Sequence record: OQ174501.1 | DNA from: Escherichia phage REP2 | Strand: one strand, 5' to 3' | DNA: 64,000 bases | In this document: positions 11,392-42,221 of the stretch, one piece after another | Numbering within the stretch: the stretch's first letter is position 1 | Layout: each line of letters begins with the position of its first letter | Program-made: the position numbers and the translations under genes | Notes under the pieces: model-generated | What the model saw: the letters and a program-made list of their open reading frames with translations, nothing else | The model's database searches: none | What the model was told of the DNA's origin: nothing

Positions 11392-11421
11392 GTTTACAAG
11401 ACTGTTCTTCCATGGTACTAT
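11392..11421 (+). promoter_or_regulatory. T4-type early promoter (GTTTAC -35, 18-bp spacer, TACTAT -10)
   Basis: gtttac 11392-11397 and tactat 11416-11421; part of a roughly 85-bp cassette repeated at 38521-38607. Confidence 0.5.
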
Positions 11422-11455
11422 ACAACTATCAACTAATACGGATTTGGAGAATAAA

Positions 11456-11692
11456 ATGAAAATTATTATGGGATGCTTAGCAGTTTGTTTAGTTGCATTA
11501 GCAGCAGTTCCATTTGTTAGTGTTGAAAATGATACTCAACCTGTGATTGAATCTAGCACCGTTATTCACACTAATGGTAAAATATCAGTTAAAATTGATG
11601 ATAATCTTCATGTGAATACAAATGGATCTTTAGGTGTGCAAATGGGTAATACCTGCATAAGCACTACTGGAGTAATTACTACTTGCATTTGA
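11456..11692 (+). CDS. hypothetical secreted small protein (signal-peptide-like N-terminus)
   Basis: 78 aa from the ATG at 11456 with GGAG SD; hydrophobic N-terminus MKIIMGCLAVCLVALAAVPF. Confidence 0.5.
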   Translation: MKIIMGCLAVCLVALAAVPFVSVENDTQPVIESSTVIHTNGKISVKIDDNLHVNTNGSLGVQMGNTCISTTGVITTCI

Positions 11693-36499: not shown

Positions 36500-37438
36500 A
36501 TGTACAATATTAAATGCCTGACCAAAAACGAACAAGCTGAAATTGTTAAGCTGTATTCAAGTGGTAATTACACCCAACAGGAATTGGCTGATTGGCAAGG
36601 TGTATCGGTTGACACAATCCGTCGTGTTTTGAAAAATGCTGAAGAAGCTAAACGCTCTAAAGTTACTATTAGCGGTGACATTACAGTTAAAGTTAATAGC
36701 GATGCAGTTATTGCTCCAGTTGCTAAATCTGACATTATTTGGAATGCATCTAAAAAATTCATTTCAATTACTGTTGACGGTGTAACTTATAACGCAACTC
36801 CTAATACTCATTCAAACTTCCAGGAAATTCTTAATCTGCTCGTAGCAGATAAGTTAGAAGAAGCGGCACAAAAAATTAATGTTCGTCGCGCTGTTGAAAA
36901 ATATATTTCCGGCGATGTTCGAATTGAAGGCGGAAGCTTGTTCTATCAAAATATCGAATTACGGTCTGGTTTAGTTGATCGTATTCTCGATTCGATGGAA
37001 AAAGGCGAAAACTTTGAATTTTATTTTCCATTCTTGGAAAATTTGTTGGAAAACCCAAGCCAAAAAGCGGTATCTCGACTCTTTGATTTCTTGGTAGCAA
37101 ATGATATTGAAATTACAGAAGATGGTTACTTCTATGCTTGGAAAGTAGTTCGCAGCAATTACTTTGACTGTCATTCAAATACTTTTGATAACAGTCCTGG
37201 TAAAGTAGTTAAAATGCCACGTACTCGTGTGAATGACGATGATACACAAACTTGTTCTCGTGGTCTGCATGTGTGTTCTAAATCTTATATTCGTCACTTT
37301 GGCAGTTCAACCAGCCGAGTTGTAAAAGTTAAAGTACATCCGCGTGATGTAGTATCAATTCCGATTGATTACAACGATGCTAAAATGCGTACCTGTCAAT
37401 ACGAAGTAGTTGAAGACGTTACTGAACAATTTAAATAA
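36500..37438 (+). CDS. rIIB: rIIB protein
   Basis: 312 aa; size and position match T4 rIIB. Confidence 0.85.
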   Translation: MYNIKCLTKNEQAEIVKLYSSGNYTQQELADWQGVSVDTIRRVLKNAEEAKRSKVTISGDITVKVNSDAVIAPVAKSDIIWNASKKFISITVDGVTYNATPNTHSNFQEILNLLVADKLEEAAQKINVRRAVEKYISGDVRIEGGSLFYQNIELRSGLVDRILDSMEKGENFEFYFPFLENLLENPSQKAVSRLFDFLVANDIEITEDGYFYAWKVVRSNYFDCHSNTFDNSPGKVVKMPRTRVNDDDTQTCSRGLHVCSKSYIRHFGSSTSRVVKVKVHPRDVVSIPIDYNDAKMRTCQYEVVEDVTEQFK

Positions 37439-37450
37439 GGGCTTCGGCCC
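37439..37450 (+). other. GGGC-UUCG-GCCC stem-loop after rIIB (possible terminator or RNA stability element, weak U tract)
   Basis: gggcttcggccc directly after the rIIB stop. Confidence 0.35.
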
Positions 37451-37466
37451 TTAACTAAGGAAAATT

Positions 37467-37661
37467 ATGTTAGGTTATCAAGCACGAGTAAAAGAAGAAT
37501 ACGATCAATTAATGCTCAAAATTAATGCACTGAGCAAATTTTTAGAAAGCGCAAAGTTTCTAACAGTTAGTGCAGTTGAGCAAGAACTGTTACTTTCGCA
37601 GTTTATCTCAATGAAATCTTATGCTGACTGTTTAGAGAAAAGAATTGAACAATTCAAATAA
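37467..37661 (+). CDS. hypothetical small protein
   Basis: 64 aa ORF. Confidence 0.4.
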   Translation: MLGYQARVKEEYDQLMLKINALSKFLESAKFLTVSAVEQELLLSQFISMKSYADCLEKRIEQFK

Positions 37662-37671
37662 ATAAATAAAT

Positions 37672-37695
37672 AAGGGCTTCGGCCCTTTTGTTTTA
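37672..37695 (+). terminator. rho-independent terminator (GGGC-UUCG-GCCC plus UUUUGUUUU)
   Basis: aagggcttcggcccttttgtttt. Confidence 0.6.
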
Positions 37696-37704
37696 AGGTA
37701 AATT

Positions 37705-38034
37705 ATGATTTATTGTATGAATATCGGTGACACCGACATAAAAGAAATTTCTCTACATGGTAATCATTACGCTAATATTGTGTACTGCAATAAATTCGAG
37801 TTTGGGCATGAAAAACTTGGAGTTCTTTACTGCAATGATGTTATAGTCATGGACAAAAAGAATCTCGATGAACTTGATCGTAATTCTTTAGATGAAAATG
37901 ATCGAATTTACTATGGTACTCTTAAAGTGTATAACGCTTATCTTAGTGGTAAAAAGGAAAGTTTAAATGCAGAAAACGAATCCGGGGTTACAGAGACTAT
38001 TTCAGATTCCGACATTTACCCTATCGAACAGTGA
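37705..38034 (+). CDS. hypothetical protein
   Basis: 109 aa ORF; overlaps the next ORF by 68 nt. Confidence 0.4.
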   Translation: MIYCMNIGDTDIKEISLHGNHYANIVYCNKFEFGHEKLGVLYCNDVIVMDKKNLDELDRNSLDENDRIYYGTLKVYNAYLSGKKESLNAENESGVTETISDSDIYPIEQ

Positions 38035-38524
38035 CTTGACTAGTGAAATGAAGGTCAAAATTGCTGATACAGCAAGATACTCTTTAAAACAAAACCCGAA
38101 CCAGGATAAAGCAGAAGTTATTGAAAGATGTCGTATCGCGGTGTACGCAGAGTTTTTTGTAGCAGATTGGCTAAACGGGTATGTTAACAAAGGACAAGAG
38201 GATGTTAATGACCCGTATACATACGCATGGGATGTATTGGCGCATCCAAGATACTGCGGGCTTCGTGTAGAAGTTAAGACACATCAAACTGACTCGCGTT
38301 GGATTTCTGTAACAACAGGATGCAGCGGAGAGTATCCATACGGTTCTGGAATAAATCTAGGGCCCATTCTGAATCATCAGGTCGCTGACTGTATAATTAT
38401 ATTCAACACTAAAGAAATTCACCCAGGTGTCATCCAGTACACTCCGAAGTTCATCGGTGATAGAGAAGACCTTCGTAAGGTTGTAAGAAAAAGCAACTAC
38501 AACGGATGGTATCTTTCCATTTAA
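37967..38524 (+). CDS. denB: endonuclease IV DenB-like
   Basis: 185 aa, matching T4 denB size and position downstream of rIIB. Confidence 0.5.
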   Translation: MQKTNPGLQRLFQIPTFTLSNSDLTSEMKVKIADTARYSLKQNPNQDKAEVIERCRIAVYAEFFVADWLNGYVNKGQEDVNDPYTYAWDVLAHPRYCGLRVEVKTHQTDSRWISVTTGCSGEYPYGSGINLGPILNHQVADCIIIFNTKEIHPGVIQYTPKFIGDREDLRKVVRKSNYNGWYLSI

Positions 38525-38540
38525 AAATTTTCACAAAACG

Positions 38541-38570
38541 GTTTACATACCACAAGGACCGTGGTACTAT
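38541..38570 (+). promoter_or_regulatory. T4-type early promoter (cassette copy)
   Basis: gtttac, 18-bp spacer, tactat; roughly 85-bp similarity to 11372-11458. Confidence 0.5.
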
Positions 38571-38604
38571 ACAACTATCAACTGATACGGATTTGGAGAG
38601 TAAA

Positions 38605-38868
38605 ATGAAATTTAAATTTTATTATGCTAAGCATAAAATAACTGATGAGTTTGTGTCAGTTGAATATTCTAGCGATGATGAAGGCATGATTTATACTCGC
38701 TTAGGATTATCGCATTGGGAGTCCGATCAGCCTTATTTTTCAACTCCTGAAGAAATTACACGCTTAGTTAATGGTCATATGAATGACCACTGGAATGTAA
38801 TTCTTTCAGATAGTCTTAAAGCGGCTATTAATAGTAATGAAATGAAAATCGCTGAGATTGAACTATGA
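38605..38868 (+). CDS. hypothetical protein
   Basis: 87 aa from the ATG at 38605 with GGAG SD. Confidence 0.45.
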   Translation: MKFKFYYAKHKITDEFVSVEYSSDDEGMIYTRLGLSHWESDQPYFSTPEEITRLVNGHMNDHWNVILSDSLKAAINSNEMKIAEIEL

Positions 38869-38951
38869 GTTCACTATGGTGGTGTTTTGTTTGGTTAATT
38901 AGTATTCCAGTAATTTGTTTAACATTTACTTTTGTGATGAGGTTATTATGA
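38865..38951 (+). CDS. tiny hydrophobic peptide (28 aa)
   Basis: ATGA-coupled to the upstream stop; MSSLWWCFVWLISIPVICLTFTFVMRLL. Confidence 0.3.
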   Translation: MSSLWWCFVWLISIPVICLTFTFVMRLL

Positions 38952-39046
38952 AAATTTTTAATTCTGTACTTATTGCTTGTGCGTGGTGGGTTGCACAAGT
39001 TTCGGCAGTAGTGATTGGTATTCACATTTATTACGAATATTTTTAA
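38948..39046 (+). CDS. tiny hydrophobic peptide (32 aa)
   Basis: ATGA-coupled; MKIFNSVLIACAWWVAQVSAVVIGIHIYYEYF. Confidence 0.3.
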   Translation: MKIFNSVLIACAWWVAQVSAVVIGIHIYYEYF

Positions 39047-39053
39047 AAAAGTT

Positions 39054-39083
39054 GTTTACAAGACTGTTCTTCCGTGGTACTAT
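39054..39083 (+). promoter_or_regulatory. T4-type early promoter
   Basis: gtttacaagactgttcttccgtggtactat, a 30-bp near-identical copy of 11392-11421. Confidence 0.5.
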
Positions 39084-39111
39084 TACCCTATCAACTACGG
39101 AGGAACAGAAA

Positions 39112-39225
39112 ATGAAAAAGATTGTTAAAGCTATATGGAATGTAGTTATAATACTAATAGTTTTGAGTATATTCCCAATCGTTTTAATGATTGATGTATT
39201 AAACGCTTACTTTGGATTTATGTGA
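39112..39225 (+). CDS. tiny hydrophobic membrane peptide (37 aa)
   Basis: GGAGG SD; MKKIVKAIWNVVIILIVLSIFPIVLMIDVLNAYFGFM. Confidence 0.4.
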   Translation: MKKIVKAIWNVVIILIVLSIFPIVLMIDVLNAYFGFM

Positions 39226-39232
39226 GGAAAAT

Positions 39233-39430
39233 ATGAAGCGTAAAAGCACTGCGTTTACATTTATTGAATGGTTTTTCGATAATATTTTTCCGGCTTTATT
39301 CATTTTCATGCTGATTTTTGCCTTAGGTTCAGTTGTAGTTGGAATCTATTTGATGGCGGTAGTTGGAATGGACATTCATCAAAATGGTTTAAAATCCGTG
39401 GTTGAAACAATTTGGAATGGTGTAAAATGA
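39233..39430 (+). CDS. small membrane protein (65 aa)
   Basis: GAGGA SD; one long hydrophobic segment. Confidence 0.45.
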   Translation: MKRKSTAFTFIEWFFDNIFPALFIFMLIFALGSVVVGIYLMAVVGMDIHQNGLKSVVETIWNGVK

Positions 39431-39537
39431 TGAATTTGCTGAGCGGTTGGTTTTATATTCTTATGTTTTACATTGGCGCAAATTTCCCATATTGGATGGG
39501 ATGGTCAACAACTGCGTTTGGATTTTATACTCCTTGA
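39427..39537 (+). CDS. tiny hydrophobic peptide (36 aa)
   Basis: ATGA-coupled; MMNLLSGWFYILMFYIGANFPYWMGWSTTAFGFYTP. Confidence 0.3.
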   Translation: MMNLLSGWFYILMFYIGANFPYWMGWSTTAFGFYTP

Positions 39538-39545
39538 GGTGAATT

Positions 39546-39761
39546 ATGAAAATCTTTAAAGATGTAAAAGTTGGTGAAATTTTTTGTTTAGATAATGGTG
39601 ATCAGTTAATTCGTATTTCACCTCTTAAGAGCACTAGCGAGAAACCGACAGTTAATGCTACTTTAGCAAATAACAGTAATGAACGTTTCTGTATTGAAAA
39701 TGATACTGAAACTTATACTGTAGAAGAGTTTTGGGAATTGAGCGTCGACTGCGACGATTAA
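39546..39761 (+). CDS. hypothetical small protein
   Basis: 71 aa ORF with GAGG SD. Confidence 0.45.
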
Positions 39762-39819
39762 TTTAATGGCCGCGTATTCATGCGGCCTTGGAGTAGAAAA
39801 TAATTTAGAGGAAATTAAT

Positions 39820-40278
39820 ATGAAATACATGACTGTTACTGATCTGAACAACGCAGGCGCTACTGTTATTGGTACAATCAAGGGTGGTGAGTGGTTTTTA
39901 GGAACTCCGCATAAAGATATTTTATCTAAACCTGGATTTTACTTTTTAGTAAGTAAATTAGATGGTCGTCCATTTAGTAATCCATGTGTGTCTGCACGAT
40001 TTTATGTAGGTAATCAGCGTTCTAAGCAAGGATTCAGTACAGTTCTAAGTCATATTCGTCAACGTCGGTCTCAGCTTGCACGTACTATTGCAAATAACAA
40101 TATGGTATACACAGTATTTTATCTGCCTGCTTCTAAGATGAAACCTCTGACGACAGGATTTGGTAAAGGTCAGTTAGCTTTGGCGTTTACCCGTAATCAT
40201 CATTCCGAGTATCAAACACTTGAAGAAATGAACCGTATGTTGGCTGATAACTTTAAATTCGTTTTGCAGGCATATTAA
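39820..40278 (+). CDS. ndd: Ndd-like protein (nucleoid disruption; assigned by size and position immediately upstream of stp)
   Basis: 152 aa from the ATG at 39820 with GAGGA SD. Confidence 0.4.
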
Positions 40279-40358
40279 TGAGTAATTTCCACAACGAACA
40301 CGTGATGCAGTTCTATCGTAATAATCTTAAAACTAAAGGCGTCTTCGGACGCCAGTGA
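40278..40358 (+). CDS. stp: Stp peptide (26 aa activator/modulator of the host PrrC anticodon nuclease system)
   Basis: 26-codon [32 protein letters not shown] overlapping the upstream stop; matches the size and position of T4 stp. Confidence 0.65.
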
Positions 40359-40365
40359 GGAAAAT

Positions 40366-40524
40366 ATGAATATTGCAAAATTATTAGGAGTTATTTCATT
40401 TATTTGTTGGATAGTAGCATGTGTTTTAACTATCTGTATTGATGCCAGCAGTGTGTTTTCGCAAGCTTTAGCTCAGGGTATGTGTGCATATTTAACATTT
40501 GTGTTGTTATCTACTAATGATTAA
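40366..40524 (+). CDS. ac: Ac-like small membrane protein (acridine sensitivity locus position)
   Basis: 52 aa hydrophobic ORF between stp and gene 52. Confidence 0.4.
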   Translation: MNIAKLLGVISFICWIVACVLTICIDASSVFSQALAQGMCAYLTFVLLSTND

Positions 40525-40657
40525 GAAAATCTTGGGCTATTCATTAGCCCTTGCTATTTTATTGATAGCATTATATTACGGAATAATGTTCGGATTAATT
40601 CAAGTCGTGCTTTTCATTTCTGATGTTATTATGGCACTACATTCACTAGTATGGTAA
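40517..40657 (+). CDS. tiny hydrophobic membrane peptide (46 aa)
   Basis: ATG overlaps the previous stop; MIKKILGYSLALAILLIALYYGIMFGLIQVVLFISDVIMALHSLVW. Confidence 0.35.
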   Translation: MIKKILGYSLALAILLIALYYGIMFGLIQVVLFISDVIMALHSLVW

Positions 40658-40661
40658 ATTT

Positions 40662-41990
40662 ATGCAACTGAATAATCGTGATTTAAAAAGTATCATTGAT
40701 AATGAAGCATTGGCTTATGCTATGTACACGGTTGAAAATCGTGCTATCCCAAATATGATTGATGGATTTAAGCCAGTTCAACGATTTGTTATTGCTCGAG
40801 CTCTTGATTTGGCACGAGGAAATAAAGATAAGTTTCACAAACTCGCTTCTATTGCAGGTGGTGTAGCAGACCTTGGATATCATCATGGTGAAAACTCTGC
40901 ACAAGACGCAGGTGCTTTGATGGCTAATACTTGGAATAATAACTTTCCTCTGTTAGATGGTCAAGGAAACTTTGGTTCTCGTACCGTTCAAAAAGCAGCG
41001 GCAAGTCGTTATATTTTTGCTCGTGTAAGTAAAAATTTCTATAGCGTATATAAAGATACTGAATATGCTCCGGTACATCAAGATAAAGAACACATTCCGC
41101 CTGCTTTCTATTTGCCTATTATTCCTACTGTTCTTCTTAATGGTGTTTCCGGTATTGCAACTGGTTATGCAACTTATATTCTTCCTCATAGTGTTTCTTC
41201 TGTCAAGAAAGCTGTATTGCAAGCTCTTCAAGGAAAGAAAGTAACTAAACCGAAGGTAGAATTTCCAGAATTTCGCGGTGAAGTCGTTGAAATTGACGGT
41301 CAATATGAAATTCGTGGAACGTACAAGTTTACTTCACGAACTCAAATGCATATCACTGAGATTCCGTATAAGTATGATCGTGAAACTTACGTGAGCAAAA
41401 TTTTAGACCCGCTTGAAGATAAAGGCTTTATTACGTGGGATGATGCTTGCGGTGAGCATGGGTTTGGCTTTAAAGTTAAATTCCGTAAAGAATACTCTTT
41501 GAGCGATAACGAAGAAGAACGCCATGCAAAAATTATGAAAGACTTCGGGTTGATTGAGCGTCGTTCCCAGAATATTACCGTCATTAATGAGAAAGGAAAG
41601 CTGCAAGTTTACGATAATGTAGTTGATTTAATCAAAGACTTCGTTGAAGTTCGTAAAACTTATGTCCAAAAACGAATTGATAACAAAATCAAAGAAACTG
41701 AATCAGCATTTCGTTTAGCCTTTGCCAAGGCGCATTTCATTAAGAAAGTAATTTCAGGTGAAATTGTTGTGCAGGGTAAAACTCGCAAAGAACTGACCGA
41801 AGAACTTTCTAAAATTGATATGTATTCTTCTTATGTTGATAAACTAGTCGGAATGAATATTTTTCATATGACTTCCGACGAAGCAAAGAAACTTGCTGAA
41901 GAAGCTAAAGCTAAGAAAGAAGAAAACGAATATTGGAAAACTACTGATGTAGTTACCGAATACACTAAAGATTTAGAGGAAATCAAATGA
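40662..41990 (+). CDS. 52: DNA topoisomerase II medium subunit gp52 (GyrA-like)
   Basis: 442 aa; GyrA-type breakage-reunion domain. Confidence 0.9.
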   Translation: MQLNNRDLKSIIDNEALAYAMYTVENRAIPNMIDGFKPVQRFVIARALDLARGNKDKFHKLASIAGGVADLGYHHGENSAQDAGALMANTWNNNFPLLDGQGNFGSRTVQKAAASRYIFARVSKNFYSVYKDTEYAPVHQDKEHIPPAFYLPIIPTVLLNGVSGIATGYATYILPHSVSSVKKAVLQALQGKKVTKPKVEFPEFRGEVVEIDGQYEIRGTYKFTSRTQMHITEIPYKYDRETYVSKILDPLEDKGFITWDDACGEHGFGFKVKFRKEYSLSDNEEERHAKIMKDFGLIERRSQNITVINEKGKLQVYDNVVDLIKDFVEVRKTYVQKRIDNKIKETESAFRLAFAKAHFIKKVISGEIVVQGKTRKELTEELSKIDMYSSYVDKLVGMNIFHMTSDEAKKLAEEAKAKKEENEYWKTTDVVTEYTKDLEEIK

Positions 41991-42191: not shown

Positions 42192-42221
42192 GTTTACAAC
42201 CAAAGCATACTGTGGTACTAT
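42192..42221 (+). promoter_or_regulatory. T4-type early promoter (cassette copy)
   Basis: gtttac, 18-bp spacer, tactat; leader ctatcaaataaatgaactgaaac repeated at 42567-42590. Confidence 0.5.

Follow-up and report, generated by a model that had tools for sequence, protein, structure and literature searches.

Five tiny candidate membrane-peptide genes between denB and ndd of Escherichia phage REP2 and their counterparts in T4

Between denB and ndd, phage T4 carries a run of very small open reading frames (ORFs), ndd.6 to ndd.2 (NC_000866, T4p275–T4p270), which have stood in its annotation for decades as 'hypothetical predicted membrane proteins'. The corresponding interval (38865–39537) was analyzed here in a stretch of 64,000 nucleotides from Escherichia phage REP2 (OQ174501.1), which as a whole is called the window below and in which a first-pass annotation made from the sequence alone had marked five translationally coupled ORFs. 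The five ORFs are the long-annotated T4 genes ndd.6, ndd.5, ndd.4, ndd.3 plus ndd.2a, and ndd.2; they are already known, and recognizing them adds nothing categorically new. Few conserved genes of the best-studied phage are as small, however, and the five adjoin proven counter-defense genes; small membrane peptides are also systematically overlooked by gene callers and proteomics.

Five small genes and their T4 counterparts

The five ORFs of 28, 32, 37, 65 and 36 codons that had been reported are all present on the + strand, with these lengths:

38865–38951, + strand: ndd.6, 28 residues, single predicted hydrophobic helix (phrog_8851, T4 annotation)
38948–39046, + strand: ndd.5, 32 residues, single predicted hydrophobic helix (phrog_5011)
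39112–39225, + strand: ndd.4, 37 residues, N-terminal KK..K followed by a strongly hydrophobic predicted helix (phrog_3098)
39233–39430, + strand: ndd.3/ndd.2a, 65 residues, one gene (DUF7248; PF23906, phrog_2401)
39427–39537, + strand: ndd.2, 36 residues, uncharged, aromatic-rich hydrophobic peptide (phrog_4135)

First, the ORFs tile the interval more densely than expected. The five ATG-initiated ORFs cover 89% of 38865–39537. Dinucleotide shuffles of the interval (n = 2000) gave a mean coverage of 33% and a maximum of 87%, and none of the 2000 reached the observed value. Second, the frames are conserved. Conservation in relatives had been proposed as the check on the cluster, with loss of the frames counting against it; the cluster passes this check. 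A search of IMG/VR anchored on Ndd yielded only five loci, and relatives were therefore drawn from the GenBank phage collection. Among 17 fetched relatives, the frames are intact in nearly all. The exceptions are isolated indels: ndd.6 has a 2-nucleotide insertion in one IMG/VR contig and ndd.2 has one in EC121, while ndd.3/2a has a one-base gap in the T4 reference. By tblastn against phage records, the full-length peptide was recovered in one frame 647 times for ndd.6, 493 times for ndd.5, 496 times for ndd.3/2a and 509 times for ndd.2. The 595 records for ndd.4 include about 100 from other genera at less than 60% identity.

Third, the substitutions are biased towards the third codon position. 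The polymorphic sites at first/second/third positions number 3/0/5 in ndd.6, 2/0/10 in ndd.5, 3/2/22 in ndd.3/2a and 5/4/13 in ndd.2. The corresponding within-genus ratios of non-synonymous to synonymous differences per site (pN/pS) are 0.16, 0.06, 0.08 and 0.18. Between genera, where pS is near saturation, the ratio is 0.44 for ndd.6 against RB69, 0.33 for ndd.4 against Dhakavirus and 0.41 for ndd.2 against a Klebsiella phage; the ungapped comparison of ndd.4 with its Klebsiella-phage orthologue is out of register and was left out. As far as sequence comparison goes, this is the substitution pattern of coding sequence under purifying selection.

In addition, each peptide gives a full-length match to a PHROG profile: phrog_8851 for ndd.6 (E 1.6e-17; 1–28/28), phrog_5011 for ndd.5 (E 9.2e-26; 1–32/32), phrog_3098 for ndd.4 (E 3.9e-21; 1–37/37), phrog_2401 for ndd.3/2a (E 1.8e-29) and phrog_4135 for ndd.2 (E 1.7e-24). 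Residues 13–63 of ndd.3/2a match Pfam DUF7248 (PF23906) with 69.0 bits, at a gathering cut-off of 27. The Pfam family of ndd.4, PF26889 (Phage_T4_Y16N), is recorded on an ndd.4 fusion of Shigella phage Sf25, described below, and on a metagenomic orthologue. Since the tiling exceeds that of the shuffles, the frames are conserved, polymorphism favors third positions and orthologues of ndd.6, ndd.4 and ndd.2 occur in other genera, the five ORFs are almost certainly genuine genes and not chance ORFs.

The orthologues beyond the genus differ in reach from gene to gene. ndd.6, a genuine gene, has orthologues in Mosigvirus and Dhakavirus that are missing from the annotations. In RB69, the orthologue (165382–165465, minus strand) has 28 residues and follows an orf87 homologue with an ATGA overlap (MSSKMWIGIWLLSIPMICIIFSIVLRYL). 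In Dhakavirus phages, it has 25 residues and likewise follows an orf87 homologue (2901–2978 and 2635–2712 of the fetched loci). Compared with shuffled sequences, the ndd.6 alignments scored z 12.5 (RB69) and 7.1 (Dhakavirus). The gene is also without annotation in REP3 and RB14. RB69 carries another unannotated hydrophobic ORF of 36 residues after ndd.6, with a second ATGA overlap; it occupies the position of ndd.5 and showed no detectable homology to it.

Orthologues of ndd.4 were found in Dhakavirus and in T4-like phages of Kosakonia, Edwardsiella, Enterobacter and Klebsiella, and those of ndd.2 in 25 Klebsiella T4-like phages at about 45–49% identity. ndd.3/2a is nearly restricted to the genus; a metagenomic relative of 76 residues with about 55% identity keeps FIEWFF-NIFP and NGLKSV..T.WNG.K. 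ndd.5 is the sole one of the five restricted to Tequatrovirus. At 45–58% identity, the motifs SIFPIV-MID (ndd.4), IPVIC (ndd.6), PYW-GWS (ndd.2) and FIEWFF-NIFPA...NGLKSV..T.WNG.K (ndd.3/2a) persist. ndd.4, ndd.2 and ndd.6 are widely conserved and hence the best candidates for functional work. In Klebsiella phage HMGUkp2 (2383–2608 of the fetched locus), an early promoter is followed by an ndd.4-like ORF of 35 residues, an ndd.2-like ORF of 35 residues and then ndd; this reduced interval suggests that ndd.4 and ndd.2 are a core pair.

Whether the five peptides are paralogues was examined with Smith-Waterman alignments against shuffles, and the idea was rejected, the best pair being ndd.4 and ndd.3/2a with z 2.8. 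A kinship of ndd.4 and ndd.2 based on their shared 'FP' motif was rejected as well (z 0.9).

In T4, the genes occupy the same position between denB and ndd, in the same order and with the same lengths and junctions, and the peptides share 92–100% amino-acid identity with those of the window; ndd.6, which is T4p275, stands at the same place as in the window. The two annotations nevertheless differ. Where the window has one gene of 65 codons, the T4 reference has ndd.3 (26 residues, out of frame) and ndd.2a (40 residues, from the internal Met26). This split is due to the one-base gap in the reference: NC_000866 (166432–166628) lacks one G in codon 2–3 (ATGAA-CGT) of the 65-codon gene, which is intact in T4 strain 147, in resequenced T4 (MT984581) and in about 496 other records. 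ndd.3 and ndd.2a are best treated as one gene, and guides or knock-outs designed from NC_000866 aim at an artifact. T4 ndd.4 is annotated with 42 residues, from an ATG that lies inside the Shine-Dalgarno (SD) sequence and is absent in most relatives, in contrast to the 37 residues of ndd.4 in the window. Finally, an 87-codon gene upstream of ndd.6 in the window (orf87) is deleted in T4.

Annotation of the genes is uneven. ndd.6 and ndd.2 are skipped by many gene callers, and ndd.2 has 35 residues where its first ATG reads ATA. GenBank records give them product names such as 'outer membrane protein', 'periplasmic protein', 'dNMP kinase', 'putative baseplate wedge subunit' and 'naphthalene 1,2-dioxygenase', which are not credible and represent propagated errors or old localization guesses.

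Junctions, promoters and variation of the locus

Over 38500–39850, the window is 100% identical to Escherichia phage REP3 and 94–99% identical to about 490 Tequatrovirus genomes (T4, T2, T6, RB14 and others); judged by its sequence, it is from a Tequatrovirus, i.e., a T4-like phage. The order on the + strand is rIIB, an ORF of 64 residues, an ORF of 109 residues, denB, orf87 (87 residues), the five small ORFs, ndd.1, ndd, stp, ac, 52.1 and gene 52. The placement of the cluster between denB and ndd was thus right, although the interval also holds orf87 (38605–38868) and ndd.1. The features that flank and separate the five genes are as follows:

38541–38570, + strand: predicted T4-type early promoter (GTTTAC-N14-GTGGTACTAT) ahead of orf87, ndd.6 and ndd.5; zero-mismatch pattern match
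38605–38868, + strand: orf87 (RB69ORF270c-like, phrog_2390), 87 residues, soluble and acidic, not hydrophobic; first gene of the first chain
39054–39083, + strand: second predicted T4-type early promoter, ahead of ndd.4, ndd.3/2a, ndd.2 and ndd.1 and probably ndd; zero-mismatch match
39546–39761, + strand: ndd.1, acidic soluble protein of 71 residues; last gene of the second chain (phrog_2183)
39768–39787, + strand: GC-rich hairpin (GGCCGCGU-AUUC-AUGCGGCC) of 8 bp, without a U-tract, between ndd.1 and ndd
39820–40278, + strand: ndd (nucleoid disruption protein), downstream landmark

ATGA overlaps join orf87 to ndd.6, ndd.6 to ndd.5 and ndd.3/2a to ndd.2, the last of which reads TAATG in one clade of relatives. 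ndd.3/2a starts 7 nucleotides past the stop of ndd.4, whose TGA forms part of the SD (TGAGG), and the TGA of ndd.2 lies inside the SD of ndd.1 (TGAGGTG). The SD of ndd.4 is GGAGG, 8 nucleotides before the ATG, and that of ndd.5 is GAGG; ndd.6 is almost without an SD of its own, and the SD of ndd.2 is poor. The ATGA, TAATG and TGAGG junctions are kept across all fetched relatives. The locus therefore has the layout of coupled chains, with three ATGA overlaps, two stops within the next SD and a single break, and translational coupling within the chains is predicted from it. One continuous coupled run of five genes had been proposed by the first-pass annotation. Its overlaps and SD junctions were seen as described, but the run is interrupted by a 65-nucleotide spacer between ndd.5 and ndd.4 that contains an early promoter. 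Neither is the cluster confined to five genes, as the first chain begins with orf87, to which ndd.6, its second gene, is joined by an ATGA overlap.

A search of the window with the T4 early-promoter pattern GTTTAC-N14-GTGGTAYTAT returned 10 zero-mismatch matches, compared with 0.04 expected. The promoter at 39054–39083 is conserved in 17 of 17 relatives, and the annotation of phage SA21RB lists it as a T4 early promoter. Of its 30 positions, the 14-nucleotide spacer included, 29 agree with the promoter at 11392. The leader, SD and ATG after the promoter at 38541 are nearly identical to those after the promoter at 11392 (11392–11460). The dispersed early promoters (39054, 38541 and 11392) thus share their parts in a mosaic pattern, and such promoter repeats could mediate the indels of the region.

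Two transcription blocks are predicted from this arrangement. Block 1 would run from the promoter at 38541 through orf87 and ndd.6 to ndd.5. Block 2 would run from the promoter at 39054 through ndd.4, ndd.3/2a and ndd.2 to ndd.1, and its transcription probably continues into ndd. The hairpin at 39768–39787, at whose position phage SA21RB has an annotated rho-independent terminator, has a centroid fold of -14.5 kcal/mol; it may be a partial terminator or an mRNA-stabilizing element.

The first chain differs between T4 and its relatives. orf87 was lost from T4 by an in-frame deletion between two AAATGAAA repeats, and its remnant is a mini-ORF of 8 codons, MKIAEIEL*, that keeps both the SD of orf87 and the ATGA overlap with ndd.6. 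Retention of this overlapping mini-ORF would be expected if ndd.6, with almost no SD of its own, needs upstream translation, and suggests that its translation depends on it. RB69 also has the pair of orf87 and ndd.6 with an ATGA overlap.

Gene content between the two promoters varies further, since an extra ORF is present there in RB14, REP4 and SA21RB, in addition to the absence of orf87 from T4. In a time-course omics study of T4, the transcripts of ndd.2, ndd.2a, ndd.3, ndd.4, ndd.5 and ndd.6 were classed as early (PMC9697503 Table S2). The description of the locus as part of a variable early region was borne out. Shigella phage Sf25 (MF327009) has, at the syntenic position (1501–1689 of the fetched locus), an in-frame fusion of 62 residues composed of residues 1–31 of ndd.4 and residues 35–65 of ndd.3/2a. 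In phage vB_EcoM-101112UKE3-1, 55 nucleotides are inserted past the stop of ndd.6 and ahead of ndd.5, where the record annotates an ORF of 48 residues. The translated insertion contains FNIYFCDEVIM, a string that a TTG-started ORF of the window also encodes just ahead of ndd.5, and the ndd.6/ndd.5 junction may thus have been duplicated locally.

Membrane character and possible functions

All five products had been described as single transmembrane (TM)-like segments rich in W, F and I. The composition agrees throughout, as W, F and I together make up 26–32% of the residues in each peptide. For the TM segments, the threshold was a Kyte-Doolittle value above about 1.6 over a run of at least about 19 uncharged hydrophobic residues. 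The best 19-residue windows score 2.33 (ndd.6), 2.18 (ndd.5), 3.06 (ndd.4) and 2.71 (ndd.3/2a), so that four peptides pass, whereas ndd.2 is weak (1.17). In this peptide, which lacks charged residues, 33% of the residues are aromatic, and it is favorable only on the Wimley-White octanol scale (sum -14.6 kcal).

AlphaFold models the 65-residue protein with a predicted local distance difference test score of 80.7 and with helices at 6–17 and 19–64 and a kink at Pro20. The predicted layout of ndd.3/2a is an N-terminal KRK, a short helix and a long TM helix that runs into a conserved C-terminal tail. Because of their N-terminal Lys/Arg residues and the positive-inside rule, ndd.5 (K), ndd.4 (KK..K) and ndd.3/2a (KRK) are predicted to insert into the inner membrane with the N-terminus in and the C-terminus out. 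Overall, the products are probably membrane peptides. It was also considered that ndd.5 could be a tiny lipoprotein, since residues 8–11 resemble a lipobox (LIAC). This was judged unlikely, as a Cys at position 11 is too short a distance for a lipoprotein signal peptide. Two other small hydrophobic early ORFs, ac (52 residues) and 52.1 (46 residues, DUF7396), lie at 40366–40657 of the window and overlap each other by 8 nucleotides; counting these, the micro-membrane ORFs between denB and gene 52 total seven.

The explanation favored here, at slightly better than even confidence, is that the genes, arranged in two promoter-headed blocks, encode conditionally useful early micro-proteins of the inner membrane whose targets are membrane proteins of the host or of prophages. 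Early transcription from the two promoters would yield peptides of 28–65 residues with one hydrophobic helix each. Within minutes of infection, these would insert in the inner membrane of the host, where they would bind larger proteins of the host or of resident prophages. A benefit would appear in particular hosts only, either by blunting membrane-based exclusion or defense or by adjusting envelope physiology. We infer the translation, membrane insertion, topology, coupling and function of the peptides from their sequences and arrangement.

In a dCas13d knock-down screen of T4 (CRISPRi-ART), ndd.2 to ndd.6 were all scored 'Not Fit', i.e., without a fitness defect in laboratory E. coli (PMC11879866 supplement). 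The first-pass annotation had put forward host takeover, superinfection exclusion or anti-defense as candidate functions. Such roles are conjectural: early transcription, dispensability in laboratory E. coli and the neighboring genes speak for them, and the missing knock-down effect speaks against host takeover or a toxin role. It is likely that the role is conditional and accessory. That it is specifically anti-defense is a tentative suggestion, on balance doubtful. The neighborhood is suggestive in that it fits a theme of counter-defense or exclusion. rIIB counters RexAB (PMC11879866). The 64-residue gene between rIIB and denB (37467–37661; T4 denB.1/Y16O) matches PF21825 'Sequestin' with 68.8 bits and is labeled merely hypothetical in REP3. 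T4 Y16O is a Sequestin sponge for 3' cyclic ADP-ribose (3'cADPR) and was shown to cancel type I Thoeris defense (bioRxiv 10.1101/2025.07.12.664507). stp, located downstream of ndd together with ac and 52.1, interacts with the PrrC system. In the literature searched, no paper gave any of the five peptides a function; the five genes do not appear in Ojima et al. or Silas et al., and no T4 ribosome-profiling study was found. A PADLOC scan of the peptides gave as its sole match one TM helix aligned to KwaA (13.8 bits, E 0.008), which does not qualify any of them as a defense component.

Several points weigh against this explanation. Divergence within the genus is only about 5%, so that conservation of the frames there partly reflects a short divergence time. 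This is answered for ndd.6, ndd.4 and ndd.2 by their cross-genus orthologues, but ndd.5 has none. With its value of 1.17, ndd.2 stays below the classical threshold for a TM helix. Of all ATG-initiated ORFs of 25–70 residues on the + strand of the window, 19% reach a Kyte-Doolittle value of at least 2.0, and hydrophobicity alone is weak evidence in this A+T-rich genome. The five families are, by the sequence searches, small and confined to T4-like phages. An exhaustive HMMER search with the 65-residue protein gave 7 matches, of which 4 are either a fragment or hydrophobic segments within very large proteins that are unrelated, and ndd.3/2a has only 3 credible clusters in 1.84 billion representative proteins. 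No homologue of known function was found in the PHROG or Pfam scans, and the NCBIfam scan gave no match. The anti-defense idea, for its part, derives from the neighborhood alone. Finally, the T4 proteome contains no detected ndd.2–ndd.6 proteins (class NA), while Ndd and Ndd.1 were detected early (both PMC9697503 Table S2); standard liquid chromatography–tandem mass spectrometry is, however, expected to miss peptides of such small size and high hydrophobicity.

A bolder version of the explanation is improbable. According to it, the peptides of each coupled chain, made in fixed proportion, would form a hetero-oligomeric inner-membrane complex that neutralizes membrane-embedded host or prophage immunity (Rex-like, Kiwa/Zorya-like or with a TM effector). 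If this were true, rIIB–ndd would be a contiguous counter-defense island, in which rII counters Rex, Sequestin counters Thoeris and the ndd.x micro-proteins counter sensors or effectors in the membrane.

Among the alternatives, superinfection exclusion, as an Imm-like block of the entry of later phage DNA through alteration of the inner membrane or periplasmic face of the infected cell, or an Ac-like change of small-molecule permeability survives best, although it is unlikely. T4 Imm excludes later phage DNA, and Ac is reported to affect small-molecule permeability (both in part from product notes of the T4 record). Early expression, the predicted single-pass peptides and the conserved, predicted periplasmic C-terminal tail of ndd.3/2a would suit such a role, and ac and 52.1 provide small hydrophobic early peptides in the same interval. 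The lack of a knock-down effect in single-phage infections is also what an exclusion function would give. However, no Imm, Sp or other family of known function was matched in the PHROG and Pfam scans, and T4 already has dedicated exclusion genes in imm and sp.

Host shut-off by membrane-damaging or depolarizing toxins, like type I toxins or holins, that would aid host takeover has a still lower probability. Known small membrane toxins are similar in size and composition to the five peptides, which are short, very hydrophobic, of a single predicted helix and early. Nevertheless, T4 needs an energized membrane through most of its cycle, and the genes are expressed early, whereas holins are expressed late. 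Knock-down of each gene in T4 caused no fitness defect. No known antitoxin RNA or other Rfam family was found in 37000–41000. Moreover, the genes are stably carried by hundreds of phages, and no toxicity is reported in the literature searched.

Another alternative is that the ORFs are translated spacers, i.e., leader or relay ORFs that tune the expression of ndd.1 and ndd or the stability of their mRNA and whose peptides would hardly matter in themselves, or, as a variant, that a nucleotide-level element lies near ndd.4. The stop/start junctions are tight throughout the chain, and the 8-codon remnant in T4 is retained purely in a coupling position. In addition, ndd.4 shows little diversity. 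Only 3 of its 114 sites segregate among 18 Tequatrovirus sequences, all three of them non-synonymous, compared with 9–21% of sites in neighboring genes, and the valley extends over about 39100–39310. The region folds modestly better than shuffles (z -2.56), and no Rfam family was matched in 37000–41000 at E ≤ 1. The valley could result from a recent sweep of a promoter-plus-ndd.4 cassette or from nucleotide-level constraint, between which a sample of 18 sequences is too small to choose; independently of any role of the peptides, the low diversity might mark a functional RNA or DNA element that overlaps ndd.4. As a general account of the five genes, however, translated spacers are quite improbable. 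Amino acids are conserved while synonymous sites vary (pN/pS of 0.06–0.18 within the genus and 0.33–0.44 between genera), the peptide motifs persist at 45–58% identity, and ndd is preceded by a hairpin and by an SD of its own.

That the ORFs are chance or decaying frames, conserved only through the roughly 95% identity of the compared phages, is hardly credible: the low within-genus divergence, the omission of ndd.6 and ndd.2 by many gene callers, the frequent hydrophobicity of spurious small ORFs in this genome and the occasional frameshifts in EC121, IMG/VR and T4 reference sequences would fit, but the tiling was unmatched in 2000 shuffles, polymorphic sites fall mostly on third codon positions, length, position and motifs are retained by the orthologues of Mosigvirus, Dhakavirus and the T4-like Klebsiella phages, the T4 'frameshift' is missing from resequenced T4, and cross-genus conservation under purifying selection refutes the idea for ndd.6, ndd.4, ndd.3/2a and ndd.2.

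Comparison with known systems

The arrangement of the locus and the putative nature of the peptides as conditional inner-membrane micro-proteins can be compared with several described systems. With respect to the arrangement, promoter-early stem-loop (PeSL) shuffling cassettes are known in T4-like phages (Arbiol 2010, PMC2839356; Comeau 2014, PMC4122927), and the exchange of ndd.4/ndd.5 between T4 and PST has been presented as an example of promoter-cassette shuffling (Comeau 2014 Fig. 6A, PMC4122927). Both promoters (38541 and 39054) fit the T4/PST PeSL consensus TTTACW-N17-TAYWAT, and, as in PeSL cassettes, they stand beside indels between close relatives. No stem-loop or hairpin was found immediately upstream of either, and these two are therefore promoter repeats without the 'SL' half. 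The promoters at 42192, 58846 and 21583 of the window do have an upstream hairpin.

With respect to the peptides, T4 Ac (52 residues) and gp52.1 (46 residues) are of the same size class, lie in the same early region and likewise have one or two hydrophobic helices. Mutation of Ac leads to acridine resistance, according to the product name in the T4 record, a genetic phenotype without a counterpart among the five peptides. Sequence similarity between these two proteins and the five peptides is absent.

T4 Imm and Sp are likewise small and early; they exert their effect at the envelope, and single infections proceed without them. Imm is larger than the five peptides and has two TM segments. In the PHROG and Pfam scans, none of the five matched these two or any other characterized family. 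The small bacterial proteins AcrZ, MgrB, MgtS, CydX and KdpF comprise 30–50 residues with one TM helix and act by binding a larger membrane protein. Here the comparison is an analogy of the 'works like' kind without homology, and the five peptides differ from these bacterial regulators in being phage-encoded and early.

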